Part shown: piece by piece, positions 2,936 through 34,315 of the stretch
Layout of the letters: every line of letters begins with the position of its first letter
Numbering within the stretch: the stretch's first letter is position 1
Assembly (NCBI GenBank): GCA_963796105.1
Contig: CAWCKJ010000004.1
Span: forward strand, 32,001 to 96,000
Length of the DNA stretch: 64,000 bases
Origin: a candidate division FCPU426 bacterium
GTDB lineage: Bacteria; Oederibacteriota; Muellerivitia; Muellerivitales; Muellerivitaceae
Direction: 5' to 3'
Made by a program: the position numbers and the translations under genes
The notes under the pieces: generated by a model
What the model saw: the letters and a program-made list of their open reading frames with translations, nothing else
Databases searched by the model: none
What the model was told of the DNA's origin: nothing

Positions 2936-3675
2936 CGTCCACGAGTAGAGTAAAGCACTGGCGCGCCTCCGGTTGCCCGGAACGTTTCCAGCGCCTTCTC
3001 GTCAAACCGTACGTGCGGTTTTCCCGCATACGGCTTTCCCTGAACGTTCGCCGAAAGCTCTTCGCCTGTTCCTTTCGGTTCAGGCTTACTCTTTCCCGCT
3101 AGTCTTGAAGCTGGTTCCAGGGCTTGGTCCTTCAGGAGTTCCTAGGCTTTCGCCAATCTCCCGCCCGTCCCCTTTATAAGACGCTGTTCAGGCCAAGCCC
3201 CTTCGCTCCCCCAAGGTTTTGCTGTCCTTGGAATCCACGCTAGTATGGGCTTGTCCGACCCCCATAGGATCTCCCTGTCATTTCGCCGCTTAGACTTATA
3301 GGCAGGTACCTGGTACTTCCCTATGGGTCTCCCAAGTTCCGTTGTTCTCCGTCTGGACGTGTCGCCCCTGTTACCCCGGAGGAGTCTCATGCGTATTTCT
3401 GGCTCCCGCATGGGATACTGGTTTCCCCAAGACCCGAAAGGGTCACCCTCCTCAATCTCGACGTTACGAGGTTACACCTAGGTTCACACGTGTTACGACC
3501 CGTCCTTTCGCATCGGGCGCTTTACCGCCCTTTGTCGAGCCGCTTGAACCTGGCAGGTTACCCCGCCCGATTCGGCTCCCTGCTACCAGACTGCCAAATT
3601 TTGTCTGGGTCGGCACTTTTCAGCCGACTGGATGAACAACAGCTTTCTTGGCGCGCCGGGTCCCCGTCGAGGACA
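2936..3675. repeat. Palindromic site S2, split by group II intron copy 1
   Basis: Joining 2936-2944 and 3657-3675 gives CGTCCACGACG-GGTCCC-CGTCGAGGACA. Confidence 0.88.
2945..3656 (-). ncRNA. ORF-less group II intron, copy 1 (712 nt)
   Basis: 5' GCGCG, domain V AAGCCGTATGCGGGAAAACCGCACGTACGGTTT (about 3004-3037, AGC triad), DVI hairpin ending ACTCTAC; EBS1-like loop CGGGUC (3431-3436); no RT ORF. Confidence 0.93.
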
Positions 3676-3739
3676 ACTTTATTCGACCTGCTCAAACCAA
3701 ATCAACTTTGAGTGATATGGTTCCAAGCTCTGAAGGGGC

Positions 3740-4171
3740 TTAGCCGGGAGGGATCGGATCTTTCCCGGCCAGGTAAATGACGCAAGTTTCGTAGTCTTGG
3801 ATGGGCTGGATTTGCACGGTCATGTTGTAAACTTCCCCGCCCACCTTGAGTTTCATCTTTCCGCTCTGCGGCTCCGTTGTTTTCGTGAGATCCATGAAGG
3901 CCATTTTCTTGAACCTGGAGATCAGGTGGCGGTAGCGGAACCAGGGCAACTCGGTGGTCCCGGGAACGAATTCCCCTTGGACCCGCCAGCGCAGCCGCAT
4001 CTTGGATTCGGCCCAGGGTTCCACCACGGGCCGGATTTGGATTTCGCTCGCCCCGGCCAGGATGGCTTCATGAAGAAGGGCAAAACTAAGCTCCCCCATC
4101 GAAGGAAAGGGCTTCTCATTCTCTTCGGGGCTTTCTCCTTCCTGGCTGGCATCCCCATGAGGGTCGTTCAT
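3740..4171 (-). CDS. Stand-alone PilB/GspE N-terminal (N2D-like) domain protein, no ATPase domain
   Basis: ASEIQIRP..MRLRWRVQG..LISRFKKMAFMDL..PQSGKM resembles the PilB/GspE ASDIHIEP..RxRxDG..ISRIKIMAxLD..PQDGR pattern; no Walker A. Confidence 0.75.
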   Translation of the reverse strand: MNDPHGDASQEGESPEENEKPFPSMGELSFALLHEAILAGASEIQIRPVVEPWAESKMRLRWRVQGEFVPGTTELPWFRYRHLISRFKKMAFMDLTKTTEPQSGKMKLKVGGEVYNMTVQIQPIQDYETCVIYLAGKDPIPPG

Positions 4172-4214
4172 GGCCGCTTATTTCTCCTCATTTTCCGGGT
4201 AATTCAAGGCTGCC

Positions 4215-4493
4215 CTATCCCGCGAACTGGCTCCGGTAAACAGCCTTGATGTGCGCCAATCTCTCTTCAAGCTGTTGGGTTTTCTCGGCCAGCCCCAACT
4301 CACGCGCCAGGCCGATGGCATCTCTCAAATAATCCTTGCAATCGCTGTATTCGGTCATCGGGTGGCTGGAATCGTACATTTGGTCATAGGCTTCCTCGGC
4401 CTTTTTCTCCAAAAACTCCAATTGCTCTTGCGGGGTCGGTGGCATGCCTAAAATCCTGGTTTTTATTCTTCCGTGAATGAAAGCGGGGTTCAT
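4215..4493 (-). CDS. Small helical hypothetical protein
   Basis: 92-aa ORF (start may be 4445) with plausible helical composition; starts just after site S3. Confidence 0.65.
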   Translation of the reverse strand: MNPAFIHGRIKTRILGMPPTPQEQLEFLEKKAEEAYDQMYDSSHPMTEYSDCKDYLRDAIGLARELGLAEKTQQLEERLAHIKAVYRSQFAG

Positions 4494-4538
4494 CCATTCC
4501 GGTTGGGCTTATCATAGTGTAATAAACCTCGTTTTCAC

Positions 4539-4566
4539 TGTCCAATGCGGGTCCCCGTCGTGGACA
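4539..4566. repeat. Palindromic cassette-boundary site S3
   Basis: TGTCCAATGCG-GGTCCC-CGTCGTGGACA, 10 bp after the stop codon of 4577-4960. Confidence 0.9.
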
Positions 4567-4576
4567 AGGACATCTC

Positions 4577-4960
4577 TTAAAAGAACTGTGGAGACCCTAA
4601 TAATCCTAATACGACATGTAGGATCAGGTAAGTCATTATGAACAGCACGGCGAACTTATACTTTTTCTGTCGTATGAACCGGAATAGAAAATGGAGTAAA
4701 AAACTGTAATACAAAAAAAATAAAACCCAAATAATTTCGGCTAAAATAAATGCCACATAAGAGTTAAAGCCTCCCTCGCTATATACAAAGTTGCTTATCC
4801 AGCGAGACAGCAACATGAAAGGTCCGAGTATAAAAATACCGATCCAGTGAAGAAATCCCTGTATTCTCAGCTGATCAATGAAATAGGCAATAGCACCTAA
4901 TGAAAAAGCGACGAGAAAATTAAAATACTTAAATTCTTTAAGCGTTTTTAAGATCTTCAA
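4577..4960 (-). CDS. Low-GC small multi-pass membrane protein
   Basis: 127 aa, about 4 hydrophobic segments, GGAGG RBS before TTG. Confidence 0.7.
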   Translation of the reverse strand: MKILKTLKEFKYFNFLVAFSLGAIAYFIDQLRIQGFLHWIGIFILGPFMLLSRWISNFVYSEGGFNSYVAFILAEIIWVLFFLYYSFLLHFLFRFIRQKKYKFAVLFIMTYLILHVVLGLLGSPQFF

Positions 4961-4997
4961 ATTGCCTCCCTATCGCGGACAACTTCTGGCAGAACGG

Positions 4998-6494
4998 TCA
5001 ATTGCCTGGTTTCTGTAAATCTTCCTGCAATTCCTTCGCTTTCCGGGCGGCATATTCATTTCCTTGGTTGGCCGCCAGTTGAAACCAGTAGAGAGCTTGC
5101 TTGGTAACATCATTGACTTCGGACTCATAGTAGAGACTACCGGCCATTGCCACGCTTTCAATCTCATATAGATCCCCTAATTTAACCTTGGCTTCGACGC
5201 TTCCCAAATTCGCGGCTTGGGTATACCACTCGATGGCTTTTTTCTCATCATTGCCCTTTTGAGGATCGTTGTAGTAATCCCCATTTTGAATGTCCTGTTC
5301 CACGGCGGTGGAAGGCGATGTGTTGGTTCCATTGGAGGTATCCCCGCTGGAATTTTCCCCCGAGGACGCCGTTACATTGGCCAAATCCGACAATTTGTTC
5401 GTTGCCATTTGGTCACCGTTCGCCGAGGCCAATTGGTACCAATATTTCGCCTTTCCGAGGTCCTTACCGACCCCTTTCCCATCTGCATAACATAGGCCCA
5501 TCATCAATTGGGCAAAACTGTTCTTCGGGTCCTGATCGGCCGCTTTTTGGAACCAAGGAATAGCCTCGGAAAACCTATTTTTTCCGTAAAAATGGTAACC
5601 CAACTGTGCTTCGTGATAAGCATCCCCCGCTTTACGCACCAAACTGACAGCCTTCGCCTCATCCGGGTTCACACCCCATCCATTCAGATAAAACATTCCC
5701 AAATTCCCGGTCGCCATCACATGCCCCTGGTCGGCGGCTTTTTGAAGCCACTTCACGGCCTCCACGTTGTCCTCCTTGGCCCCCTTGCCATCGGAATAAG
5801 CCAAGCCAAGTGAGTTCTCTCCGTCCGCATTGCCTAGGTCCGCCGATCGGTTGAAATATTGAAAAGCCTCATCATCCTTGCCCGCCTTTTGGGCTTCCGT
5901 GCCCTTTTGGAAAAAGGCTGCGCCATCCTCCACTGTCGTTGGACTACTGCTAGTTGGGGGAGCATTCGAAGTGGGCTCGGACGCGGGCTGGTTTGAACCG
6001 TTCGCGGAACTTTCGGGAGGAAAGGGGGTTGTGCCTGAATTGATCTTTGCCAAAGCCTCATCGGCCTTTTTATATCCTTGGGCCGATGCTTTTTGAAGCC
6101 AATCCTGGCCTTCTTTCTTACCCGAAGCGATCTCGGCGTCCCATTTTTCAATTTGCTTTTGATCTTTTTGCGTCCATTCCCAAGCCGTCATGGCCATTGC
6201 CGCGTCATAAAGGTAAAGCCCATAGCGATACTGGCCCTCGGCGTTCCCCTTTTCCGCGGCAACGCTATACCATTTACCCTCGTCTTCATATTTTTTGATC
6301 TTGTTCGCGGCCTTTGCCCTCTTGAGGGCCACCTTCGCCGAAACGGAGTGATCGATCTTAACTCGGGAGGGCGTCACGGTCGCCGTGGGAAGTTCGCTGT
6401 CCGCAGGCACATACACATTCTGGGCCAACACGGAGCCTCCAAAGGCCGCAATACCAAGGATGGCCCCTAAAAATATTCCAGTTCTTATTTTCAT
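4998..6494 (-). CDS. Secreted Sel1-repeat protein
   Basis: Signal peptide and multiple SEL1 motifs (A...LG..Y..G.G...D...A..W.QKAA.QG). Confidence 0.92.
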   Translation of the reverse strand: MKIRTGIFLGAILGIAAFGGSVLAQNVYVPADSELPTATVTPSRVKIDHSVSAKVALKRAKAANKIKKYEDEGKWYSVAAEKGNAEGQYRYGLYLYDAAMAMTAWEWTQKDQKQIEKWDAEIASGKKEGQDWLQKASAQGYKKADEALAKINSGTTPFPPESSANGSNQPASEPTSNAPPTSSSPTTVEDGAAFFQKGTEAQKAGKDDEAFQYFNRSADLGNADGENSLGLAYSDGKGAKEDNVEAVKWLQKAADQGHVMATGNLGMFYLNGWGVNPDEAKAVSLVRKAGDAYHEAQLGYHFYGKNRFSEAIPWFQKAADQDPKNSFAQLMMGLCYADGKGVGKDLGKAKYWYQLASANGDQMATNKLSDLANVTASSGENSSGDTSNGTNTSPSTAVEQDIQNGDYYNDPQKGNDEKKAIEWYTQAANLGSVEAKVKLGDLYEIESVAMAGSLYYESEVNDVTKQALYWFQLAANQGNEYAARKAKELQEDLQKPGN

Positions 6495-6565
6495 ATTTCC
6501 CTCCCTGGTTTTATTTTAATCTCGAGATCACTAGTTCAACCGAATATTTAGAGGCCGAAGTTTTT

Positions 6566-6593
6566 TGTCCACCAGGGGTCCCCGTCGTGGACA
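6566..6593. repeat. Palindromic cassette-boundary site S4
   Basis: TGTCCACCAGG-GGTCCC-CGTCGTGGACA, 8 bp after the stop codon at 6602. Confidence 0.9.
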
Positions 6594-6601
6594 AGGTTGA
6601 G

Positions 6602-6829
6602 CTATTGTCTCTTCCGATACCCAACACCGCTTTTGGGTTTCCCTGTGAGAGCATAACGGAACAAATAAATTCCTACACCAATTGAAACAGCGGCTGCAAA
6701 ATAACCATAAATAAGTAAAGAATGTTCTATTTCGCAATAAATGCTATATACAGCAAATGCAAAACACACCAAACTCATTCCAAAAGCTTCCCACTTGTTA
6801 AATTTATAAGAAAATTCTAATTTTTTCAT
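6602..6829 (-). CDS. 75-aa two-TM membrane protein filling the cassette between S5 and S4
   Basis: GGAGAGG RBS then ATG at 6829 (MKKLEFSYKF...); the longer ORF call starts inside the intron. Confidence 0.75.
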   Translation of the reverse strand: MKKLEFSYKFNKWEAFGMSLVCFAFAVYSIYCEIEHSLLIYGYFAAAVSIGVGIYLFRYALTGKPKSGVGYRKRQ

Positions 6830-6843
6830 ACCTCTCCAAAGGC

Positions 6844-7583
6844 TGTCCACGAGTAGAGTAAAGCACTGGCGCGCCTCCGGTTGCCCGGAACGTTTCCAGC
6901 GCCTTCTCGTCAAACCGTACGTGCGGTTTTCCCGCATACGGCTTTCCCTGAACGTTCGCCGAAAGCTCTTCGCCTGTTCCTTTCGGTTCAGGCTTACTCT
7001 TTCCCGCTAGTCTTGAAGCTGGTTCCAGGGCTTGGTCCTTCAGGAGTTCCTAGGCTTTCGCCAATCTCCCGCCCGTCCCCTTTATAAGACGCTGTTCAGG
7101 CCAAGCCCCTTCGCTCCCCCAAGGTTTTGCTGTCCTTGGAATCCACGCTAGTATGGGCTTGTCCGACCCCCATAGGATCTCCCTGTCATTTCGCCGCTTA
7201 GACTTATAGGCAGGTACCTGGTACTTCCCTATGGGTCTCCCAAGTTCCGTTGTTCTCCGTCTGGACGTGTCGCCCCTGTTACCCCGGAGGAGTCTCATGC
7301 GTATTTCTGGCTCCCGCATGGGATACTGGTTTCCCCAAGACCCGAAAGGGTCACCCTCCTCAATCTCGACGTTACGAGGTTACACCTAGGTTCACACGTG
7401 TTACGACCCGTCCTTTCGCATCGGGCGCTTTACCGCCCTTTGTCGAGCCGCTTGAACCTGGCAGGTTACCCCGCCCGATTCGGCTCCCTGCTACCAGACT
7501 GCCAAATTTTGTCTGGGTCGGCACTTTTCAGCCGACTGGATGAACAACAGCTTTCTTGGCGCGCCGGGTCCCCATCGTGGACA
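6844..7583. repeat. Palindromic site S5, split by group II intron copy 2
   Basis: Joining 6844-6852 and 7565-7583 gives TGTCCACGACG-GGTCCC-CATCGTGGACA. Confidence 0.9.
6853..7564 (-). ncRNA. ORF-less group II intron, copy 2
   Basis: Appears identical to 2945-3656 (offset 3908 bp); same insertion point in the palindrome. Confidence 0.93.
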
Positions 7584-7813: not shown

Positions 7814-8245
7814 TTAAACTTCACCCCCTTCCTCGATGTAAACGTCCTCGCAAACTTCGGATTCACAAGCCAGGCTGTCCATGTTGTGAATTTCTCCCGC
7901 TTCCTCCTCCGTCCGAGCTTTGTAGACTTTCCTTCCCTTGAGGGTCCAATAGACCGTGAAATTTCTTAACCCCTGGGCCTTCTTAACCGGGCGGTGTTTT
8001 ATTTCCCTCAAGGCAGAAATAACCCGGTGAAGTTCTTCCTGCGCCGTTTCCAGGGCCTTAATTACGTTGGCCGTAATATCCCTGGGGTTTTTCCCGTCTG
8101 CCGTTTCCCGGATTTCCTCGACTATGAAAGCGGCCAAGCCGTCCCCGGTGTCTTTCTCCCCCTTTCTAATACGGTCTATAAGCCCGTCCGGATAGGCGGC
8201 GTTAGCCGCCTTTAAAAGTTTGTTGGTGTGTCTGTTGTTAAGCAT
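7814..8245 (-). CDS. Hypothetical protein downstream of ardC
   Basis: ATG overlaps the ardC stop (TAATG), AGGAGG RBS; MLNNRHTNKLL... Confidence 0.7.
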   Translation of the reverse strand: MLNNRHTNKLLKAANAAYPDGLIDRIRKGEKDTGDGLAAFIVEEIRETADGKNPRDITANVIKALETAQEELHRVISALREIKHRPVKKAQGLRNFTVYWTLKGRKVYKARTEEEAGEIHNMDSLACESEVCEDVYIEEGGEV

Positions 8246-8639
8246 TAAGCAACCTCCTTGTTTTGTTCTGCATCTACGGGTTTCAGAAGAAAATCGACGG
8301 CCTTTTGGGCCTGGGAAACGGCGGTCATTAGGGCCTTTGAATCGTCTTTGATTGCTTCGATCCAATTGGCGATATAAGAGGCGTGGTTGGTCTTGTAGGG
8401 GATGCCGACATGGGCGCAAAGGATTGCGGCCCCAAACTCGGCCACAAGCTCCTCGGCGGCATATTCCGGGGAACCGAAAAGGGAGCCTTTAACCCGGTCG
8501 AGCCTGGCCTTTCCTCCGGTCCAGTGGGTGTTATGCCGATATCGGCATAAGACGCAAAATGCCGAATCCCGGATTATGCCGAATGGACCGACGTTTCCCT
8601 TGAATTGATAACCCCGGCCCATTCGATGATTCGGCATAA

Positions 8640-9638
8640 TCAAAGCGCCTCCAAGAACGCGAGTAACTTGTCGTCAGGACGATACCGCCCCGGTTTACAG
8701 GCGATGGCGGCTACACTAGACAAGGCTTTTTCTTTGAGTCGGAGATCCGCATGCATGTAGACCTGAGTGGTTTCAACGGATTCATGCCCAAGCCAGAGAG
8801 CGATTACCGATTGGTCAACCCCGTGTTGCAACAGTTCCATGGCTGTGCTGTGCCGCAGGACGTGAGGACTGACCCGCTTGCCGACAAGCGAGCTACAGTA
8901 CGCTGACGCTGATAGCGTGTGTTTTTGGACGATGTACTCAAATGCGTCACGACTCATCCGCTCTCCACGTATAGTCGGGAAAAGAGGACTGTTTTCAGCG
9001 CCTTGATGTTCTTTCAACCATGCTTCGAGTAGCTTTGCGGTTTCCTTTCGAAGTGGGGTGCACCGTTGTTTACGCCCTTTGCCTTCACACCGAATGTGAG
9101 CACCCTCGCCAAGCACGACATCTTGGGGACGAAGATTGATCAATTCGGATGAGCGAAGCCCCGTTTGTAATACAACCAGCAGGATCAACAGGTCACGACG
9201 GCCAACCCAGGTTTTCCGATCAGGTGCTTTGAGAAGCGCTTCAATCTCCGGCCGATCCAGAAAATCCACGGTTCGCCGGACATATCTTTTGCTCGGCATG
9301 GCCAGGATTTTTTGACAATGGAGCATATAGGCCGGCTCGCTCATTGCCACATAACGGAAGAAGGAGCGAATAGCTGTCAAACGAACATTCCTGCTACGCG
9401 CCGTATTCTTCCGGGCCGTTTCGACGTGATGGAGAAAATCACCCACCAGCCCCACATCCAAGTCTTCAATCCGAAGTTTCGTTGGGTCCTTGCCACGCTT
9501 TTCACTGGCGAAGCGCAGGAACAAGCGGAAGGTGTCGCGGTATCCGGCAATCGTATTTGGGCTCGCCTCCATCTGGTTGCGCAGACGGTCGGTAAAAAAG
9601 TGTTGGAGCATTGCCGGGAAGGTTGATGGGTTCATCAT
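8640..9638 (-). CDS. Tyrosine recombinase (RitC-type)
   Basis: TGLRSSEL, GKGRKQR, HVLRHS, LGHES..TT..Y motifs. Confidence 0.93.
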   Translation of the reverse strand: MMNPSTFPAMLQHFFTDRLRNQMEASPNTIAGYRDTFRLFLRFASEKRGKDPTKLRIEDLDVGLVGDFLHHVETARKNTARSRNVRLTAIRSFFRYVAMSEPAYMLHCQKILAMPSKRYVRRTVDFLDRPEIEALLKAPDRKTWVGRRDLLILLVVLQTGLRSSELINLRPQDVVLGEGAHIRCEGKGRKQRCTPLRKETAKLLEAWLKEHQGAENSPLFPTIRGERMSRDAFEYIVQKHTLSASAYCSSLVGKRVSPHVLRHSTAMELLQHGVDQSVIALWLGHESVETTQVYMHADLRLKEKALSSVAAIACKPGRYRPDDKLLAFLEAL

Positions 9639-10579
9639 CGCACCTCCACAGCCGAGTTACCGGTTACCCGCCGGGAGGCAAGTTCCAGCAATTCGGGAAC
9701 GGCCTCGATATACCAGTAGGTGTGCTCCGGACCGGAGTGACCCAGATATGTCGTCAGTTTGATCATTTCCCGGGTGACATCCTTGCCCGTGCGATACCAA
9801 CCCACCATCGTGCGTGCGGCGAAGGTGTGCCGGAGATCGTGGAGGCGCGGGCCTCGTCCATGTTTGCAGAACCGTTGGGGAGTCCGTAACCCAATTCGCT
9901 GGCAAACAACCGCGAAGTTGTAGCGCGCGCTGCAATCGTCCGGACGGTTTCCTTCCTCCGTGGCAAAGAAGGATTGCGGAACGAAGCCCACAAGCTGGTC
10001 GCGTTGGATAACGTAGGCCTTCAGGTGTTTGGAAACGTCCTTGGTGATGGGTACCGAGCGCGTTTTCCCACCCTTAGCACGCTGGATGGTCAAGACACCG
10101 CTGTCCAAATCAACATCATCGTTGTCCAGTCCAAGCGCTTCACTAACCCTGAGACCAGTTATTGCGATCAACCCAAAGAGGGTTGAAAAGGTCAACGCCC
10201 GTATGCCGCTCATGGAGGGCAGGCTGGACGCGGTTTCGACAATCCTTTTGATCTCTTCGTCGCTGTAGATGTGGGGCTTTGGACGGCGAAATCGATATGG
10301 AATAAGCCCCTTTGGTGGTACTTCATGCGCTGGATCAAGGCCATGAAGCCATTGCGCAAAAAGCCGGATCATTGTTAGGCGGGCGGCCCAAGTCGGACGG
10401 TGGGCCTTGCCAAAATCCTTTTGCCACTTCAGGAACAACTCGGTGGATATATGGTTAGCGCCTTGTTGTTCGGCGAAGGCAATAAACCTGCGAAGCACCC
10501 TGGCTGTCGTAGTGAGGTCAAAGCCCAGGCCGCGACGGATCATCAAATAACGGTCGAGTTCTTGGGATAGGTTGCTCAT
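9635..10579 (-). CDS. Tyrosine recombinase (RitB-type)
   Basis: TGLRVSEAL, HDLRHTFA, LGHS..HTYWY; 4-bp overlaps with neighbours. Confidence 0.93.
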   Translation of the reverse strand: MSNLSQELDRYLMIRRGLGFDLTTTARVLRRFIAFAEQQGANHISTELFLKWQKDFGKAHRPTWAARLTMIRLFAQWLHGLDPAHEVPPKGLIPYRFRRPKPHIYSDEEIKRIVETASSLPSMSGIRALTFSTLFGLIAITGLRVSEALGLDNDDVDLDSGVLTIQRAKGGKTRSVPITKDVSKHLKAYVIQRDQLVGFVPQSFFATEEGNRPDDCSARYNFAVVCQRIGLRTPQRFCKHGRGPRLHDLRHTFAARTMVGWYRTGKDVTREMIKLTTYLGHSGPEHTYWYIEAVPELLELASRRVTGNSAVEVR

Positions 10580-11826
10580 TTCGCACCTACCTCAACCGGC
10601 CATGGCTGGGCGACCGAGCGCAAACCTTCAATATCGACCTTGGCGTAGATCATCGTTGTTTGCCTGGATCGGTGGCGGAGCACATCGCCCACTTCGGGAA
10701 GTGATGATCCATGCTTCATCAGTTTCATGGCCAGGCTATGCCTCAAAATGTTGGCGCCTACATATCGGACAGGAGGCCTCAAGCCGGTCTTGATAAAGGC
10801 TTCTTTCAAGACCGAGTTGAGGATTTCCGCACCTTGGAAAGGTAGTCGCGGGGCGCGCTCAGTGACGAACAATACCCTGGATGTCGTCTTGCGGTCGCGT
10901 CGGATATAGTCGGCAAGGACTTCACCAACGTCCTGAGGAAGAGGCATCCGGTCATGCAACTGTCCCTTGCCCCGAATGAGAATTTCGCCCTTGCGCCAGT
11001 CGATATCGTCGATTTGAACCGTGATGACCTCGGTGGGCCGCAGTCCAAGCCTGGCCATAAGAAGTATCATGGCGTAATTGCGTCGTCCGACAGGCGTATC
11101 TTTCCTGACGGCAGCAATGAGAGTTTCCACCTGTTCAGACGTTAGATGTCGTGGAAGGGATTGTTGGTGGGGTTGGGCGATCCGGGGGACACTGGGCGCC
11201 AGATTGGTTGCCGTTTTACCGCTTTTGAAAAGAAACAGCAGAAAATTCCTCAGATGTGTTGCCTGTGTCTTGTCCCGGAAAAGCTTTCGACGCGATAGCT
11301 GGAATTGAATGTACTTGATGATACCTTCTGGCGTAATTCCAGAAAGGTTATCCTTCCCGTCGGAGAAAAGGAATTTGAGAAATTGATTGGCGACATACCA
11401 GCAACGAAGGATTGATTTCTCGGTGAGCCCTCGCTGACGGCGGAGATACTCCTCGTAATCCATCCTCAAACGAAGGCGTGGAGCATCAGGGATCTTCGGG
11501 GCCAAGACAGGTTTTACCAAACCTAACCCCGCCAGGAATTTCATGAAATTCCTGGCCATGAAGTCGGCCTTTTTTTTCCAGGGTTCTGATGAATCAGAAC
11601 CCTGGAGAAGCTTTATGGCCTCATCCTCGTCAAGATTTTTTAGTTTGACTCCGGCTTCCTTCACGGCCCGATCAAGAACGGCGATACAAACTACGTATTG
11701 ATAAATTCTCGCCTGGCTGTATCCCTGGTTTTCCAGAAAGTTCTGGAACCGTCCCAGGTGCTTGCTAAACGGGCCATTGACCGTTTTGACCTTGGTACAA
11801 ACCCGCCCTGCTATAGATGATTTCAT
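10576..11826 (-). CDS. Tyrosine recombinase (RitA-type)
   Basis: LGLRPTEV, ILRHSLA, LRHRS..TT.IYAK; GGAG RBS before ATG at 11826. Confidence 0.92.
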   Translation of the reverse strand: MKSSIAGRVCTKVKTVNGPFSKHLGRFQNFLENQGYSQARIYQYVVCIAVLDRAVKEAGVKLKNLDEDEAIKLLQGSDSSEPWKKKADFMARNFMKFLAGLGLVKPVLAPKIPDAPRLRLRMDYEEYLRRQRGLTEKSILRCWYVANQFLKFLFSDGKDNLSGITPEGIIKYIQFQLSRRKLFRDKTQATHLRNFLLFLFKSGKTATNLAPSVPRIAQPHQQSLPRHLTSEQVETLIAAVRKDTPVGRRNYAMILLMARLGLRPTEVITVQIDDIDWRKGEILIRGKGQLHDRMPLPQDVGEVLADYIRRDRKTTSRVLFVTERAPRLPFQGAEILNSVLKEAFIKTGLRPPVRYVGANILRHSLAMKLMKHGSSLPEVGDVLRHRSRQTTMIYAKVDIEGLRSVAQPWPVEVGAK

Positions 11827-12657
11827 CTCGTTGCTCCTTTTGACTGAATTTCCGACTAAGGAGCAAAAATAGCACAGACAAATCCGCCATCTGGTGTAAG
11901 TCAACCTAACTTCGATGGCCATTTCTACACCTCAAGCAGAGACCAATTCGCGGGTTTTATGCCGAATGAAATTTTCATTTTCTGATGAAAAACGGGCTGA
12001 CTGGAATCGGTTCGGCATAATCCGGGATTCGGCATTTTGCGTCAACTCGTGGAAAAGAGTTCCGTAATAGCCTTCCGTTGTTTTGAAAGCTTCCTTGAAG
12101 GGGAGGGTGATTCGGTCGGTCGCCGGGCTGTAAAAAGCTTTGTCCTTAACCTGGTCGAAAAGTATGGCGGCTCCCGAGTTCTTTATGATTTGGTCGGCTT
12201 CATCGACGTTCTTAACCTGGTTCCCGGTGAATTTCTCCTTCAAGTGGTCAAGTCCCTCGATCTGGTCAAGGTTGAAAACGTAGTGAAGGCGGATAAAGGG
12301 AAATGTTTTGGATAATTTTTTTCCCTGCTCGTCCCTTTCCTCCGTTGTCTTGCTCTTGATCTCAAAATAAATAATCTCGGTTCCCTTTTCCCCTTTCTTT
12401 ACGGTCCCGCCTAATGTCTTGGCTTGAAGAAAAGTCATCCATGCGGGGGAAGAGTAGTTTTCCTGTTGGCGCTTGTATCCCAAAAGAATCAAGTTCATCC
12501 CCTGGTAAATGTGGGAGGAAGAACCATTGACGGAAGGAACGAAAAACCAAGGCTTGTCCCATGGCATGACGCCCTTTTCCATGTCGGCGGTAATTTTTTC
12601 GGCTACTTCTTCGACTAAGTTTGAAAGCTTTTCTTTTGTTTCCATTGGTTTCCCCTT

Positions 12658-12783
12658 TCAGTTAATAATTTCGTTCTGGATCATTTCCAAGGCCCGGTCA
12701 ATTTCAGATTCGGGAACGGGGTGTTGCTTTACTTCCTCAAGGATTTCTTTTGTCTCTTTGAACTTCTTCATAAATTCGTTCAT
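12658..12783 (-). CDS. 41-aa acidic helical peptide upstream of ardC
   Basis: MNEFMKKFKETKEILEEVKQHPVPESEIDRALEMIQNEIIN with AAGGAG RBS; below the ORF-track cutoff. Confidence 0.55.
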   Translation of the reverse strand: MNEFMKKFKETKEILEEVKQHPVPESEIDRALEMIQNEIIN

Positions 12784-13401
12784 CTAAGGCTCCTTTTTTT
12801 GATCTGCTCTTCGGGAACAGCCCTCCGGGGGCCGCCCTTCACAAATAGGCCGAGGAACGAGGCCGGTGAGGGCGGACACCGAGGGCAAAGGGGTTTATGG
12901 ACAAACGGAGGGCGCAAGCCCGGAGTGCCGGCCAGCAGGTCTTTCTCGTGAAGGAAAAGTTTGCGCGGTAGGGCTAGGCGAAGCCGACGCCCGTCAGCGA
13001 AACCGGAAGACGAGAAGGGCAATCTTGGCCCGACGGCCAGGAGGGCCGCCCTGGGAGGATGGAGGCGGCGTTAGCCGCTTTGACTCACGGGAAAGTTCCC
13101 TGGATCGGTCATCGTTGGGGTTGCCAGGGGGTTCTCCCCTTGGCTAGGGATGGGAAATGGGAAGGGGCTTTTCATCCCTTCCCCTGGGGGGTCCGGGGGA
13201 CGGCTCGAACGAGCCCGCCGCCCGGGCTAGGTGGGGCCAGGGGAGGGTTGTTCCTCCCTGCTTTAAAAGAAATACGAGTCCCGACATTCTGGAAGCCCAC
13301 ACGTCCCCGATAGGGGCGGCGGGGCTTCCTCCCCCGCGGCCAAAGGTCGCGGTCGGGACGAGATAAAGGGGACCGGGGGCAAAGCCCCCGGTTGCGAGGC
13401 T

Positions 13402-13626
13402 CTATCCCGCCTTATTTACGAATTGAATATCCTCTTCAAAAATTTCTTCACAGTAGGGGCAAAATCCGGTGTCCGGGTCGAGTGAAAAAGTTTTTTTACC
13501 ACATGAAAGGCATTCCCCATTACAGGCGGGGCAATCCCTCCCCTCCTTTTCGGGGTCCCAACCGTGGCCACACTTCCACGGGGAAAAAGGGTAATGAAGA
13601 TGTGGTTTCACTTTGATCTGGTTCAT
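13402..13626 (-). CDS. Small Cys-rich zinc-binding protein
   Basis: CPAC, CLSC, CPYC motifs; ATGA overlap with radC stop. Confidence 0.65.
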   Translation of the reverse strand: MNQIKVKPHLHYPFSPWKCGHGWDPEKEGRDCPACNGECLSCGKKTFSLDPDTGFCPYCEEIFEEDIQFVNKAG

Positions 13627-14114
13627 GCAAGTAACCCGGCGTGGCGGAATGAAAAATGGCTCTCGTGAGTAACAATGATGTGGTCGTGAACGGTGATTCC
13701 CATGGCCCGGCAAGCGGTGACAATCTGGCGGGTTAATTGGCGGTCGCCTTCGGAGGCTTCAAGGCTTCCCCCTGGGTGGTTGTGACTTAGCAAAATTCCG
13801 GAGGCGTCAAGCTCCAAAGCCTTCTTGATTATTTCCCTCGGGTAAACGGCGGTATGGTCAACCGTTCCTTCGCCTCCGCAAACAACATCAAGAAGATGAT
13901 TCCGATGGTCAACGTACATCGTTAGAAAACATTCCCTCTTTTTCCCTCCAATGTATTTGCGGAAATATTCGGCGGCGTCCCCTGGGCCACTTAGGGCGGG
14001 TCCCCTTTTGTAGTCGGCTCGTGCTTCTGCCCAAGAAACCACCGGAATGGTCGGCGGGGGTAACACCATCAAATCAAATTTCAACTGCTCCTGCTTTCTT
14101 GTGTTTGTTCTCAT
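13623..14114 (-). CDS. radC: RadC-like JAB domain protein
   Basis: GTVDHTAVYPREI, HNHPGG...S..D, VHDHIIV motifs. Confidence 0.92.
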   Translation of the reverse strand: MRTNTRKQEQLKFDLMVLPPPTIPVVSWAEARADYKRGPALSGPGDAAEYFRKYIGGKKRECFLTMYVDHRNHLLDVVCGGEGTVDHTAVYPREIIKKALELDASGILLSHNHPGGSLEASEGDRQLTRQIVTACRAMGITVHDHIIVTHESHFSFRHAGLLA

Positions 14115-14496
14115 ATGCCCTGCTCCTTGATTTATTAGAGGAGAGAGCACCCTCCGGGTGCGCCCCCTCACAAAATCCTTGGGGGCGCAAACGGAGCGAA
14201 AAGAGGTGTTGGCTATGGAAAACCGATGCCGGGGGAAAGTGCGTCGTTTGTTTAAGCATTATTGGGGGAAAAGACAAAACATCCGTGAGGCCGGAATCGC
14301 GAGGAACGAAGCCCGGCCGTTTTGGCTTTTAGGCGCCGACCGACCCCAACGGCGTAGCCGCCCCCGGATCGGTTTTCTTCCATATTGACTTAAGTTGTGG
14401 GAGTTACGGGGGGATCTTCCAACCGGGCTAGGGATGGGATATGGGAAGGGTCAAGTCGATCATTTAAAAAAACTACGAAAATAATTGTCTAAAAAA

Positions 14497-14781
14497 TCAC
14501 CAATAAATCTCTCGATTAAGATTTGCCGCAACAAATTGTAAATTAATGTTTTGGAAAAACGGATGGAAATTGGGTGGCGCTAAAAAACCCATTCTTCCTC
14601 CCCCATTATCCCACACGGGAACAACTGTACCTTTCAGGCCAGCCCCATTGGCTTTTAATTGAAATAAATTCTTTTGGGCATTTTGAGATTGTTGACCTTG
14701 AGCGCCAAAGGAACTTTCAAGTGGAATAATAATAAGATCAACACCTTGTTCATTTATATGAGCTACTTTATATCTGGGCAT
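14497..14781 (-). CDS. Hypothetical protein co-transcribed with LexA-like gene
   Basis: 94 aa, AAGGAGAG RBS, low GC. Confidence 0.75.
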   Translation of the reverse strand: MPRYKVAHINEQGVDLIIIPLESSFGAQGQQSQNAQKNLFQLKANGAGLKGTVVPVWDNGGGRMGFLAPPNFHPFFQNINLQFVAANLNREIYW

Positions 14782-14813
14782 TATTTTCTCTCCTTATCTC
14801 TAAATATAATCTT

Positions 14814-15413
14814 TCAACTTATTACACCCCTAATCTCACCTTCAACTTTGAAATCGTCGGATGCTAAAAAAGGTTGATAGCTTTGGTTTAATGAAGCAAG
14901 TATTGGTTTCTTATCTTTTATTAGAACTTTTTTTATCATCGTCTCTCCATTATTAACACAAACCATAATGCATCCATTTTTCGGGGTATTAGTTTTTTTA
15001 ACAATCAATAGGTCACCATCACTGATTTTTGGAACCATTGAATCGCCTTTTGCTTTTACCATAAATGCATCTTTGGATGGAAAGGTTAGGAGTCTTGTTG
15101 TAATTGGAATTCTTTCTATAGGATTTCCATCAAGTATGGAACCGTTCGGACCGCATCGAGCCAAACCATACAAATTGAGAAGGGTTACTTGCTTTTCAGG
15201 AGCATCTTTTTTTAAAACCTGATAATCCCGAGGGTTGGAGGGATTTCTTTTCAAGTAACCTTTGATTTCCAATTGTTTAATGTGGTGGGCAACTACACTC
15301 TTCGACGACAAATCCAGCCTGTTTTTCATCTCTTGTATTGACAAGGGATCGTCAATTGTTTCGGCGAGCAAACCTAGAAGCTTTTCTTGGACATGATGAA
15401 GTTTCTTTTGCAT
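14814..15413 (-). CDS. LexA-like repressor (winged HTH + S24 peptidase)
   Basis: LSSKSVVAHHIKQLEIKGYL HTH, Cys-Gly cleavage site, KGDSM Ser and IKK Lys catalytic motifs. Confidence 0.88.
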   Translation of the reverse strand: MQKKLHHVQEKLLGLLAETIDDPLSIQEMKNRLDLSSKSVVAHHIKQLEIKGYLKRNPSNPRDYQVLKKDAPEKQVTLLNLYGLARCGPNGSILDGNPIERIPITTRLLTFPSKDAFMVKAKGDSMVPKISDGDLLIVKKTNTPKNGCIMVCVNNGETMIKKVLIKDKKPILASLNQSYQPFLASDDFKVEGEIRGVIS

Positions 15414-15758: not shown

Positions 15759-17402
15759 CCTGAATTTTGCGCCTAATAAAAAAACCATCTAGGAAACCAT
15801 TATAGGATAAGGGTTGCGAAGCCAACTCATCCTAAAAGAGGGTCCCCCAGATGGTGAAACGTCAAGATACGCCTCAGAAATCAAACCCGCAAGTCCAGAA
15901 AAAAGCCAATCGAAACGGGAGAATCGCGCCCAAGATTACGGCCAATACTCCCGTAGGTATTTGCGAAGACCGCCTAACAGCTTTTGGCGGATTGTTGGCA
16001 TTGGCGAAGATGTTCGACCTTCTTGATTTTGAGCGGGAATTCAAAAAACACTATGCCGCACCTAAACGCCTTCCGAATTTGGGCCACTACCGGATGGTAA
16101 GCGGCATCCTAATGCTTCTTTTCATCGGGTTCCAAAGACTTGGCCATTTTGCCTACCTGCGGGGTGAGGTCATGCTGTGCGGTTTACTGCGGGTTCCCTT
16201 GTTGCCGGTAGTGACAACTTTTTGGAGATACCTGAGGTCGCTGGGGATCGGGCAGTCGGCATCGTTGCTGAATCTGAGTGGGGCGTTACGGGCCAAGGTT
16301 TGGGGACAGGTGAAATATGCCCCCAAGAAGGTGGAGATCAACATCGATACCACCACCGCAACGGTCTACGGAAATATCGAGGGAAGCCGAAAAGGATACA
16401 ACCCCAAGCACCGGGGCAAGAAGGGACTGAGGCCCATTCTGTGTTTTCTCCAGGAAACCCGGGAATATTTGTGCGGAACCCAAAGACGCGGAACCACCCT
16501 TAGTTCTGAGGAAGTGGCCCGCCAAATTAGACAATTCCGGCGACTCTTGCCGTCCTGTGTCCGGACGATTCTGGTGCGCGGTGACGGTGAAATGATCGGC
16601 TGGGAAAGCGTGAAAGCCTGTGAAAAAGAAGGGTTTTCTTTCATCTTCGGGAACAAGCGGCATGACCCGCCTTTCACGAAAAAGGGTTGGTACCGCCATG
16701 GAGAACACGAATACAACGAATGTGTCCATCAACCCATAGGCTGGCAACAACCAGTCCGGTTTGTGGCGATGAGGACGCTGGATGAAAAAGCGCGGGAGAA
16801 ACAATTGAGCCTTCCTGAAATGGAAGGATATGTCTACCGAATCTTCGCGACCAACTGTCTGGGAGCACCCCATCGGGTGGTTGAGGAATACGACCTGCGC
16901 GCGGATGTGGAAAACCTGATTGGTGAGGCGCAACGGGAGGGGTTATTAGCAATTCCCTCTAAGAGTTTCCAAAGCCACCATGCTTTTTTCCAGATCGTGA
17001 TGCTGGCTTACAACCTCTGGAGGTGGATGAAACTAATGGTGGGCCATTGTGGAAAAGAAAAGCGACCGGGAAAGAAGCCACAGGAGAAGGAACAGATCAC
17101 CATGCCGGACCATACCCTTCGGATCGCACGTTTGAAGATGCTCTTTGTAGCCGCCCGAATCCAGTATCACGGCCATCGGGATGTGGTGAGGTATTCAATC
17201 CATGATGATAGGACAGCGGGCCTATTGGGTTTCCTCAAATACCTTGATCGAAAACGATTGGAAAGACCCAGGGCGGCCTAGAAGTGGCTTGGTGCAAAAA
17301 ATTCTTTGCACATAAGTTCACTTCTGATGAAAATGGCCACTGTCGGGTCCCGATTCAGGCCGATCTGGCCACGGAATCGGTAAACTCGGTGCAAAATTCA
17401 GG
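15759..17402 (+). mobile_element. IS1380-family insertion sequence
   Basis: Terminal IRs CCTGAATTTTGCGCC / GGTGCAAAATTCAGG; 5-bp target duplication AGCCA (15754-15758, 17403-17407). Confidence 0.92.
15851..17281 (+). CDS. IS1380-family DDE transposase
   Basis: LTAFGGL, INIDTT..VYG..EG..GYN, VRGD, Y..R..VENLI.E motifs. Confidence 0.92.
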   Translation: MVKRQDTPQKSNPQVQKKANRNGRIAPKITANTPVGICEDRLTAFGGLLALAKMFDLLDFEREFKKHYAAPKRLPNLGHYRMVSGILMLLFIGFQRLGHFAYLRGEVMLCGLLRVPLLPVVTTFWRYLRSLGIGQSASLLNLSGALRAKVWGQVKYAPKKVEINIDTTTATVYGNIEGSRKGYNPKHRGKKGLRPILCFLQETREYLCGTQRRGTTLSSEEVARQIRQFRRLLPSCVRTILVRGDGEMIGWESVKACEKEGFSFIFGNKRHDPPFTKKGWYRHGEHEYNECVHQPIGWQQPVRFVAMRTLDEKAREKQLSLPEMEGYVYRIFATNCLGAPHRVVEEYDLRADVENLIGEAQREGLLAIPSKSFQSHHAFFQIVMLAYNLWRWMKLMVGHCGKEKRPGKKPQEKEQITMPDHTLRIARLKMLFVAARIQYHGHRDVVRYSIHDDRTAGLLGFLKYLDRKRLERPRAA

Positions 17403-19495: not shown

Positions 19496-19533
19496 TTACG
19501 AAACAGCTGCTCTACCAGCTGAGCTACCCCAGC
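19496..19533 (-). tRNA. 5' half of tRNA-Thr(CGT), truncated after the anticodon loop
   Basis: GCTGGGGTAGCTCAGCTGGTAGAGCAGCTGTTTCGTAA, then unrelated sequence with no 3' anticodon stem or T arm. Confidence 0.85.
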
Positions 19534-19688
19534 CCAAAGTCTCATAATTTCTAGGGCTTGTCGAAATTACCAAGTTTTCGTAATGAACTTGGCTCCAGCT
19601 TTTCTTAATCAAACTTCTTCAAAACTTAGTGAAGTTTACCGGCTCGTATAATCACCGTCAATGCTTTCTCTATCAAAGCTTAAAATAA

Positions 19689-31570: not shown

Positions 31571-31705
31571 ATCCGACAACCTACCTATGCTTGCAAAGCA
31601 ACTATCCAGTTAGTCCGGATTTCCGGCGGTCGGTACGGGTTTTCTTACCGGCATGGGGCACCCTGCACGCAGGTCCAATAAGCCCTGTCCGCAGATTTGG
31701 TTACG

Positions 31706-32115
31706 CCTTCCGTTGATCGATACCTGGATTTCCGTTGGTCGAGACCGAGATTACCGTTGGTCGGGGCTGGATTTCCGTTGGTCAAGGCCGAAATTATCGT
31801 TGGTCGAAATTGGGATTAAGCTACAACCCAGTTCCAGAAGCCCACAACCCAGTTCCAAGAGGCCACAACCCAGTTCCAGAAGCTCACAACCCAGTTCCAG
31901 GAGGCCAAAACCCAGTTCCAGAAGCTCACAACTCAGTTCCAGGAGGCCAAAACCCAGTTCCAGAAGCTCACAACCCAGTTCCAGGAGGCCAAAACCCAGT
32001 TCCAGAAGCTCACAACCCAGTTCCAGGAGGCCAAAACCCAGTTCCAGAAGCTCACAACCCAGTTCCAGGAGGCCAAAACCCAGTTCCAGAAGCTCACAAC
32101 CCAGTTCCAGGTATG
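31706..32115. repeat. Two adjacent 21-bp tandem repeat arrays
   Basis: About 5 degenerate TTCCGTTGGTCG-containing units (31706-31810), then 14 units of CA(C/A)AACCCAGTTCCA(GAAGCT/GGAGGC) (31822-32115) alternating with 42-bp periodicity. Confidence 0.92.
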
Positions 32116-32125
32116 AGTTCCCCCA

Positions 32126-34315
32126 TCAATGAACCGGCTTTATTCCTCCGGCTGGTTTGGACCTAGCCGCTAGGGCGTCCAGGTTTCGTAGGTCCCCAGG
32201 CGAGGGTTGGAAAAGAGTGTCCCATTTCCCCGCTTGTAGGTAGGCCTCTTTGGCCTCAGCGAAGCGCCCGAGGGCCCCATAGATATACCCCAACCCGTAA
32301 TACAAAAAGCCGTCCTGCCCGTCCTGGAGCGCCTTTTGATAGGCCGGAAGGGCCAGGTCATACCGCTTGTTCAGGCAATAGAGATACCCGAGTTTCCCCC
32401 AATAGCAAAACCGCAGGAATGGGCTTTCCTGGAAAAGGGGTTCCCGGTCCTTGAGGCGCTGGATGATATCGTCGAAAGACTGCTGGTAGGGGCGGTTGAA
32501 CTGAAGGTAATTAATCTCCCTTAAGACCTTATCCGCCTCCCCCCATCCGTCCAGGATCTTCCGGTTTTCTGGAGTAAGGGGAATGATGGCCAGAAGGCTG
32601 TTGTCCGATAGAGCGTGCACTTGCTGATTGGGGTTAGAGGTAAATTGGGCGTCGGGAAACCACCCGGACAAAAGGGGCCTGGCCCATTCGTCTGTCATGA
32701 TAGCGGCCCAGTTTTCCGGCCCCCGCTCCAAGGCCGGGTTCGCGAGGGTGTTGAAGGGATAGGCCCCCAGGGCCATATAGCAGGGAAACCAGTGACAAGT
32801 GAAAAGGGAATATAAAAACCGCCCGGTGTTGTCATATAGGAGGGTGGAGTGGGGCGGGTTGAAGTCCAGGCAAAATTCGGAGTAAACCCGCCCAGGGCCT
32901 TTCTCCTGGCTCATCTTCTGGAGGGTTTCGCAAGTCCAAACCGTGGGATTCATTGCCGAATTATTCCGGTCGGCGATAGCCATGCTTTTTTCCAGATTAG
33001 CCCAATCCAGAACGAGGGATAGAAGGAAAAACCCGAGTACGAATGGAACCCTCGCGGAAACTTTTGGGAATCCCTCCCAGAGAACGCCGAAACCAAAGGC
33101 AGTGACGCCGATGAAGATCGGCATCAAGCCCGCCAAGTGGTACCAGTTGGGGTTATGAGAGAGGAACAAAGAAGCCAATTGGATGACGATACCTATGCCC
33201 ACCCATTTCACCAGAGGAACGCTCCGCAACCGGACTAGCTCGACCAGGCCCATAAGAAAAAGACTCCCCAAGACCGGATTCAGGAAACCGCCCCATTGAG
33301 GGTTATAAGCGAAATCCCCGTTGGAACCCGTCCAAAGAAAACTGGTTAAAAACTGAAGTATGAGGCTGTAATTAGCATCGAATAATTTTGGAGATTCGGG
33401 GTGGAGTGTAAAAATGTGCTTAAGATAAAAACCAAAACCCTCTCTCATAGCCGCAATAAATAAAGGGAGTACAAAGAGAACCGCGACAGTCATGCATAGG
33501 ATAAAAAGAACTTTTCCCTTAGTAACAGCTTTTGTATATATCCGCAAAATCGCTGGGATGAACCATAGGACGATCAGGAGCCAGGCGAAATAGGTGTAAA
33601 ACCCAAGACCCAGGCAAAGGCCCAAGAAAGCCATGATCCAAGCGCGGTTCCAGAAAGAACCGGCTTTGTAGAGTTTGGCAAGAAGCCAGAAGGCCAATGC
33701 CTCCCAAAAAACCATAAGAATGGCGTTGGTGGAAAACCGTCCTTGGAAAACCGGCCAAAATCCCGCGCCCAACAAGAGAAGATAGACGAAGGATAGGCCT
33801 CGGGAAAAAACCCCACGGAAAGCCAGGTAATAAAAAACCACGCTGAGGAAGGACAACAGGGCCGGAACCATCCAAAGATCTAGGTTGGAGACACCCTCGA
33901 TCTTGAACACAATAGTCAACAGCCAAATATAGAAAGGGGGCATTTGGGTGTTGTAGTAAAAAAGGTTCCAAGACCATTGGTCTTTCAGGTGGATGGCGTT
34001 GTAAGCGTTGATGACTTCGTCCGGAATGGGAAAGGATAGGTAGGAAGTTAATTTAAAAAGGCGGACTGCCAGGGCCAAACAAAAGGCCAAGACCACCCAC
34101 CAGGACGCCGGTGTGAAAAGTTCCCGCGAAAAAAGGGTTGGTTCCTGGGGCGTATAAGAGGGCCGACTTTTCAGGTAAACCCAAACAAGCGGCCCGAAAC
34201 CTAGGAGCCCCAAGGACAGTTTAATGGGCCAGTCCAAGGAAGAGTAAGCCAGCAGGGCGTTGAGCGCCGTTGTGAGGATAAAGATTACGGATAGCCTGGA
34301 AAAAAGAACTGCCAA
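32126..34315 (-). CDS. ArnT/GT39-like (GT-C) membrane glycosyltransferase with TPR
   Basis: RLFKL...PDE, MPPFY, GLGFYTY, many TM segments, C-terminal TPR. Confidence 0.78.
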   Translation of the reverse strand: MAVLFSRLSVIFILTTALNALLAYSSLDWPIKLSLGLLGFGPLVWVYLKSRPSYTPQEPTLFSRELFTPASWWVVLAFCLALAVRLFKLTSYLSFPIPDEVINAYNAIHLKDQWSWNLFYYNTQMPPFYIWLLTIVFKIEGVSNLDLWMVPALLSFLSVVFYYLAFRGVFSRGLSFVYLLLLGAGFWPVFQGRFSTNAILMVFWEALAFWLLAKLYKAGSFWNRAWIMAFLGLCLGLGFYTYFAWLLIVLWFIPAILRIYTKAVTKGKVLFILCMTVAVLFVLPLFIAAMREGFGFYLKHIFTLHPESPKLFDANYSLILQFLTSFLWTGSNGDFAYNPQWGGFLNPVLGSLFLMGLVELVRLRSVPLVKWVGIGIVIQLASLFLSHNPNWYHLAGLMPIFIGVTAFGFGVLWEGFPKVSARVPFVLGFFLLSLVLDWANLEKSMAIADRNNSAMNPTVWTCETLQKMSQEKGPGRVYSEFCLDFNPPHSTLLYDNTGRFLYSLFTCHWFPCYMALGAYPFNTLANPALERGPENWAAIMTDEWARPLLSGWFPDAQFTSNPNQQVHALSDNSLLAIIPLTPENRKILDGWGEADKVLREINYLQFNRPYQQSFDDIIQRLKDREPLFQESPFLRFCYWGKLGYLYCLNKRYDLALPAYQKALQDGQDGFLYYGLGYIYGALGRFAEAKEAYLQAGKWDTLFQPSPGDLRNLDALAARSKPAGGIKPVH

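Follow-up and report, generated by a model that had tools for sequence, protein, structure and literature searches.

Two introns in an array of short repeats

The 64,000-nucleotide (nt) stretch of DNA analysed here, which we call the window, comes from a candidate division FCPU426 bacterium (GenBank assembly GCA_963796105.1, contig CAWCKJ010000004.1, positions 32,001 to 96,000) and carries on its minus strand two group II introns of 712 nt each, at 2945-3656 (copy 1) and 6853-7564 (copy 2). The copies lie 3.9 kb apart and are the same at 712 of 712 positions, and blastn found no further match to the intron in the genome. Both exceed the Rfam cut-offs for RF00029 (47.8 bits over positions 1-77; cut-off 40 bits) and RF02005 (70.6 bits over positions 1-225 of 225; cut-off 49 bits). 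Their 5' terminus, GCGCG, has the GNGYG-type start expected of group II introns; at the other end a domain V (3004-3037; 6912-6945 in copy 2), with an AGC triad and a 5-nt loop, is followed by domain VI and an AY terminus, here AC. The longest sense frame has 109 codons and no YADD motif, and the N-terminus of a reverse transcriptase (RT) survives as a remnant, with no start codon, in a domain IV stub (approximate limits 3060-3259). The original prediction, which was made from the letters of the window, had described two identical 712-nt introns with an AGC triad, lacking an open reading frame (ORF) and inserted at the same base on the strand of the neighbouring genes; sequence comparison and Rfam both agree with it.

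Each intron splits one member of a series of near-palindromic 28-bp repeats, which consist of 11-bp arms around a 6-bp centre. Counted on the gene strand, the junction of both copies falls after base 19 of the repeat, and deletion of the intron in silico joins the two parts into a 28-bp repeat that resembles those standing empty at 1832, 4539 and 6566. On the minus strand of the window we distinguish the empty repeats S1 (1832-1859), S3 (4539-4566) and S4 (6566-6593) and the split repeats S2 and S5. Bases 1-19 of S2 (3657-3675) form the 5' exon of copy 1, with the intron-binding sites (IBS) IBS2 and IBS1, and its bases 20-28 (2936-2944) the 3' exon; for S5 and copy 2 the corresponding positions are 7565-7583 and 6844-6852. 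The genes between the repeats, also on the minus strand and co-oriented with both introns, comprise one with no Pfam match in the S2-S1 unit (1892-2794), two short genes in the S3-S2 unit (3740-4493), one of which has a T2SSE N-terminal match, and a Sel1-repeat gene with a short ORF in the S4-S3 unit (4577-6494).

The window genome as a whole contains 52 profile matches to the repeat (one with the reversed control), mostly in direct-repeat arrays, and the direct orientation holds in nearly all arrays. Such repeats were found in 28 of 30 family genomes and in the one order-mate; the phylum's 67 other genomes had none. The units that run from site to site are compact: 76 of 82 contain a co-oriented ORF, and the median distance is 20 nt between stop codon and repeat and 66 nt between repeat and start codon.

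Recognition of the target

The original prediction had singled out CGGGUC at 3431-3436 as a loop resembling exon-binding site (EBS) 1, complementary to the end of the 5' exon, and had staked the idea on this loop being that of domain Id3. With two G-U pairs the pairing extends from this core to 8 pairs, at 3429-3436 (7337-7344 in copy 2). EBS1 reads bases 12-19 of the repeat and EBS3, an A at 3371 (7279 in copy 2), reads base 20, so that together they fix the position of the junction. Relatives of the intron were sought in 99 genomes of the phylum and in two public collections, which contributed 5 and 4 loci; our own handles for genomes and loci are used below to tell them apart. In a matrix of EBS1 sequences against exons, seven of eight introns pair with their own 5' exon at 8 of 8 positions (the remaining one, L123, at 5 of 8), and the EBS1 of the window intron forms 1-5 of 8 pairs with the six off-site exons. 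Both intron copies in G053, a genome from another genus of the family, show a compensatory change at position -1, with U for C in EBS1 and A for G in the exon. The Id3 stem is retained and its loop varies: all 66 tested cells pair, and two pairs have changed on both sides (six sequences). EBS3 follows the 3' exon in the same manner: exons that begin with U face an A (the window, G053 and L118), exons that begin with A face a U (G049, G021 and L120), and in L119 a U faces an exon that begins with G. The predicted EBS1 of the window intron is thus confirmed by covariation, its place in the Id3 loop by the stem pairing kept across relatives, and the introns that share this EBS1 have five of five junctions at the same base of the same repeat.

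A nearby CGUCG, also proposed as an exon-pairing element, sits inside a 7-nt EBS2 candidate at 3457-3463 (7365-7371 in copy 2) that is complementary to the left arm of the repeat. By sequence it pairs at 7 of 7 positions with the exon of copy 1 and at 6 of 7 with that of copy 2; the site-targeting copies give 6-7 of 7 pairs, and the off-site relatives give no clean register. A delta pairing of IIA type with the 3' exon was rejected, as it would place U opposite U in the window.

Class of the intron

By the features of its predicted RNA, the window intron is of IIB type with features of classes IIE and IIF, and is not an IIC-attC intron. The IIB assignment is made because EBS3 covaries with the 3' exon, which is read through EBS3-IBS3 and not through delta, and EBS1-IBS1 pairing, which in IIB introns spans about 6 pairs, involves the Id3 loop. 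The features shared with IIE and IIF are the alpha-prime element at a hairpin tip (3398-3403, minus strand, with its partner alpha at 3593-3598; PMC3753933), the 5-nt loop of domain V, and an RT-maturase, that of G053, with no endonuclease domain. The alpha pairs are invariant across relatives and hence are not evidence from covariation. The placement draws on these features and not on a tree with reference proteins, and the best plasmid-borne RT matches among those listed are only 39-45% identical. IIC-attC introns have an EBS1 of 3-4 pairs and no EBS2 and are inserted opposite to cassette transcription; the window intron has 8 EBS1 pairs and lies on the same strand as the genes. The 8-pair EBS1, the use of EBS3 and the orientation support the earlier view that it belongs to a different lineage from the IIC introns. 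One exception in strand was seen, at L118, where a copy of the lineage called C below lies on the other strand.

Four lineages at one site

RF00029 has 69 matches in 13 of 31 family genomes, of which 66, plus further loci, were examined for their junctions. From these it appears that the lineage of the window introns (lineage A) shares its target with others: three further lineages are present at bases 11, 26 and 28 of the same repeat, as judged from junction sequences, and this is new here. Lineage A inserts after base 19, lineage B after base 28, lineage C after base 26 and lineage D after base 11. The 29 distinct junctions of lineage B comprise 24 in clear repeats, 2 in degenerate repeats and 3 in unrelated sequence (a script gave 27 of 29; one false call was removed and two were set apart manually). 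For lineage D the 5' flank is visible at 21 junctions, and a manual count puts 15 of them after base 11; one of these belongs to an ORF-less copy in the window genome, outside the window, at C7:118494-117633. Lineage C is ORF-less in G051, after base 26, and in L118 it occupies base 26 on the opposite strand of a site already occupied by A. No RT is known for lineage C among the loci examined. The EBS1 of each of the four lineages pairs fully in one register only, which is the one observed. Identity among the RTs of A, B and D is 38-45%, and in the RT tree they fall into three supported clades, each with members at unrelated targets. Lineage B occurs in both ORF-less and RT-bearing forms in G048 and G067, and some sites in G067 hold both D and B. 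The convergence on this site that had been suggested for a single intron is therefore real and wider than proposed, and the repeat is likely a shared landing pad for parasitic RNAs that would use RTs borrowed from relatives.

Two arrangements among these loci may be recorded separately. At L118:1600-1670 one repeat holds a lineage A and a lineage C intron, back to back and on opposite strands. The window genome has two tandem ORF-less lineage D introns at C7:118494-117081 (L107), of which the first follows base 11 of a repeat and the second has no domain V.

The original prediction left room for the intron as a partner of the site, and one may suppose that the introns build cassettes by joining a gene to a repeat through splicing and reverse transcription. 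The same idea has been stated for IIC-attC introns (PMC3001079), and it gains from the four lineages that target one site in the transcribed orientation and from the compactness of the units. Against it, G044, G050, G052 and G064 have 7-39 repeat matches each and no RT or domain V was found in them; four insertion registers suit independent parasitism better than one shared function; and A, B and D each have close relatives whose targets are unrelated sequences. We consider partnership in cassette creation highly improbable. Parasitism fits better, because those four genomes have the repeats without intron or RT.

Relatives of lineage A and the possible source of the RT

An RT-bearing parent had been expected elsewhere, and this expectation was met in part. 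The RT-bearing form exists: G053 has two copies of 1930 nt at the same base of the repeat, encoding a 436-amino-acid (aa) protein with RVT_1 and GIIM domains and a YADD motif, and with no match to an endonuclease family. Its presence elsewhere in the window genome found no support, as Pfam and tblastn searches detected no RT there (96.8% complete, 16 contigs). The window intron is 97% identical to that of G053 over domains I to III (D1-D3) and 62% identical over the domain IV (D4) stub, which groups instead with ORF-less copies (97% with L118, 83% with G049). Whether D1-D3 is site-targeting or off-site, it occurs both with an ORF-less and with an RT-bearing D4: the four pairings are represented by the window and L118, G053, G049 and L120, which implies that the ORF-less and RT-bearing forms met in one cell. 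We infer from these sequences that domains were exchanged, in either direction, between co-resident ORF-less and RT-bearing forms.

ORF-less copies that are 93-96% alike occur in other hosts at the same base with unrelated flanks. Contigs from peat RNA libraries include an unspliced ORF-less copy, 96% identical, that shares the base of insertion but has different flanks; RNA libraries can contain DNA, and this copy is thus no proof of transcription. Spliced or circular joints were seen in none of the contigs of four RNA and four DNA runs, a result that cannot show their absence. Neither RT nor repeat was found in viral contigs, and plasmids share with the intron only short pieces around domain V.

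A second genome, G066 (98% complete; L033, L049 and L058), carries B- and D-type intron RNA; the D copy that is fully seen is ORF-less, and no RT was found in that genome. Unless an RT went unassembled, the window genome and G066 look like cases of ORF-less introns with no resident RT.

Probable mode of spread of the introns

We think it probable that these introns spread as parasites, retrohoming into empty repeats that covariation identifies as their targets, with an RT that would likely be borrowed from an RT-bearing relative. The intron would be transcribed together with the cassette genes and would splice from that RNA; it could then reverse-splice into an empty repeat by EBS1 and EBS3 pairing, perhaps assisted by EBS2. 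Single-stranded DNA at replication forks is proposed as the target of this step because the cognate RT has no endonuclease domain. That RT would act in trans, from a helper that was present only for a time or that was not assembled. The repeat may be favoured as a target because its copies are many, lie between genes and are well conserved. An inserted intron splits the DNA site and would block any recombination there, with the genes left intact; the ligated exon would restore the palindrome in RNA only, the DNA site remaining split.

Several observations weigh against this account. EBS2 shows no clean covariation in the off-site relatives, and L123 falls short of full pairing even with its own exon. 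The minimum-energy fold pairs EBS1 with the intron's own GACCC, and two local folds of EBS1 are near equal (-8.4 versus -8.2 kcal/mol); EBS1 is taken as a loop because the comparison of relatives shows it so, which fold energy alone does not. Eight of 44 scored repeats are empty despite full EBS1 and EBS3 pairing. Site orientation has no clear link to GC skew in the window genome, where the skew is weak. Finally, there is the failure to find an RT in that genome, no genome was seen with both ORF-less and RT-bearing forms of lineage A, and the contigs of the four RNA runs show the unspliced form with no joint.

Some of these points would also suit an inert relic that was multiplied at the DNA level, by gene conversion or recombination between repeats, and not by retrohoming: no RT was found in the window genome, the two copies are identical and only 3.9 kb apart, and the contigs have no spliced joint. 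The identity of the copies nevertheless ends inside the repeat on both sides, with at most 19 and 9 shared bases; closely similar ORF-less copies are at the same base amid unrelated flanks in other hosts; and the structural pairs tested are intact in all 66 cells. Duplication of a relic is for these reasons quite unlikely, and retrohoming with a borrowed RT remains our preferred explanation.

The repeat and its candidate enzymes

The repeat reads as a cassette junction that bounds shuffled single-gene units within one order, a reading we adopt because the same units turn up in other genera beside new neighbours, with their ends at repeats, and because the repeat is missing from orthologous empty loci and one array terminates in a half-site. 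A different view holds that the repeat is a protein-binding or RNA element and not a recombination site, the introns exploiting a common intergenic sequence; it is a view of the site alone and does not conflict with the mechanism of spread preferred above. It can draw on the fact that no recombinase among the candidates tried could be tied to the repeat. The recurrence of units, the empty loci and the half-site all speak against it, as do two results on the repeat itself: a -10 box at the right spacing after the repeat is at background level (5 of 131), by which a promoter role was rejected, and the arms lack the co-variation of a compensating hairpin (8.55 versus 8.49 pairs, with 349 of 2000 shuffles as high), by which that role was rejected too. 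Such an element is rather unlikely in our judgement.

None of 31 family genomes has an integron integrase above the TIGR02249 cut-off, and the repeat consensus has no attC R box (GTTRRRY) and no excess complementarity within sites. A Xer-like protein is 54-76% identical in 29 of 30 family genomes, the order-mate and the window genome, and at most 36% identical in the other 67 phylum genomes; its distribution mirrors that of the repeat, a clade-wide co-occurrence that counts as one event only. The notion that the repeat is the host dif of this single Xer was rejected. The Xer gene has an AT-rich 11-6-11 palindrome of its own, unrelated to the repeat. Of 17 genomes checked, 12 have this palindrome directly upstream of the gene; it is single-copy in the window genome and lies at the GC-skew switch in G068, and with this dif-like palindrome beside Xer the repeat is therefore probably not dif. 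The single Xer and the AT-rich palindrome are a candidate for a new single-recombinase dif system. As a separate observation, the Xer-like recombinase (C3:368882-369945; L101) appears to replace the XerC/XerD pair in the order.

Other enzymes were rejected on their distribution. A Y1 transposase (PF01797, REP/RAYT) is present in only three of five repeat-bearing genomes tested, as is a serine recombinase; a small integrative element often found near arrays occurs in 21 of 30 family genomes and is absent from G064; and a RIT-type trio of tyrosine recombinases is inserted in ardC, and the other mapped arrays lack it. This trio, at 8551-12043 of the window, lies between perfect 33-bp inverted repeats. 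The small integrative element is enriched in the order (L061:2297-6716, with 12 matches in the window genome) and encodes a coupling protein, a 287-aa protein with no Pfam match, an excisionase and an integrase; one of its integrases adjoins a tRNA-like remnant. A tRNA-like 5' half that ARAGORN did not call, possibly the remnant of an island attachment site, lies on the minus strand of the window at about 19496-19545. A DDE_Tnp_1_4 transposase is found at 15851-17281, and further copies that share its N-terminus are found next to the Xer gene and close to another array.

Taken as a whole, a larger picture is possible that we would neither bet on nor against. The order may run a cassette system with neither IntI and attC nor its own Xer and dif. 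Distinct intron lineages may have colonised the junction of this system on at least four occasions, each retargeted through its EBS elements to its own register so that two can share a site, and the ORF-less "mini" forms may persist as a lineage apart, one that exchanges its targeting domain with RT-bearing forms.

Neighbouring features

Genes resembling ardC, radC and lexA (window 7814-15413) adjoin the array and suggest that it rides on a genomic island. Elsewhere in the window a 62-nt direct repeat (8-69 and 812-873; 92%) flanks a small lysine- and methionine-rich gene, and a tandem array with a 21-bp period occupies 31702-32155. Near panB on C3 of the window genome is a repeat of about 95-110 nt (L211:75-186) that has many copies in five family genomes.

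Implications

Taken singly, the intron is chemically ordinary; what stands out is that four lineages converge, that ORF-less forms occur as orphans and that the junction lacks an explanation. In these lineages base changes in EBS1 and EBS3 have redirected introns to four positions spread over 18 bases of one multicopy site, a natural series that makes convergent safe-haven targeting directly testable; this pattern has so far been tied mainly to IIC-attC introns. The introns flag a cassette-type junction, and their own junctions map the accessible bases of the repeat. Domain swapping between ORF-less and RT-bearing forms is apparent, and the list of ORF-less introns with no resident RT, exceptional according to a 2015 review (PMC4424553), would be extended.

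Comparison with known systems

No paper among those listed dealt with several intron lineages that share one such site, subscription papers lying outside the search; nor did any of the listed papers on dif sites, Xer or pdif modules, as judged by title or abstract, deal with group II introns there. Leon and Roy (2009) are said to have described a class E lineage at integron attI sites, which would lower the novelty of our observations.

The closest functional parallel is with the IIC-attC introns (S.ma.I2 lineage), which like those described here are group II introns specialised on the junction of single-gene cassettes. They form one clade that recognises a stem-loop with an EBS1 of 3-4 bp and inserts into the bottom strand, opposite to transcription (PMC3001079, PMC7923331). 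The introns of the present order differ in using 8 bp plus EBS3, in lying in the gene orientation, in comprising four lineages with four registers, and in having no attC box or IntI at their site. In structure they are closer to IIE and IIF introns (Cl.be.I2, Ge.ur.I1 and Pe.th.I2) and to the g1-g4 introns without endonuclease, with which they share the alpha-prime tip, the 5-nt loop of domain V, exon recognition of IIB type and an RT-maturase lacking the endonuclease (PMC3753933, PMC3552965). The available portions of those two papers give no cassette-junction target for these introns; the divergence of the best plasmid-borne RT matches listed also sets the present introns apart.

The ORF-less TeI3 introns of Thermosynechococcus elongatus, for which mobilisation in trans by a driver RT in the same genome is established, offer a parallel in their one old ORF deletion, the divergence of their EBS to new targets and, as proposed here, their mobilisation in trans (PMC2882425); unlike TeI3, the introns of the window genome and of G066 are in genomes in which no RT was found. 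C.te.I1 is the only ORF-less bacterial intron with no resident RT named in the available portions of the 2015 review (PMC4424553). UHB.I2 and H.ha.F1/F2 are likewise IIB introns inside cassette arrays, UHB.I2 being co-oriented with the genes; in the available portions of their description they appear as isolated cases beside attC sites whose exons are poorly conserved, and no site-specific lineage is shown (PMC7923331).

The geometry of the repeat recalls the dif modules of Acinetobacter, in which 28-bp 11-6-11 sites bound accessory genes (PMC13141974), and mobile elements of the IS1202 family that hunt pdif sites are a DNA-transposon parallel to the intron targeting (PMC10132070). The pdif sites of Acinetobacter resemble the host dif and alternate in orientation (PMC13141974), whereas the repeats described here are direct, near-symmetric and unlike the probable dif of their host, and the elements that hunt them are RNA-guided introns.

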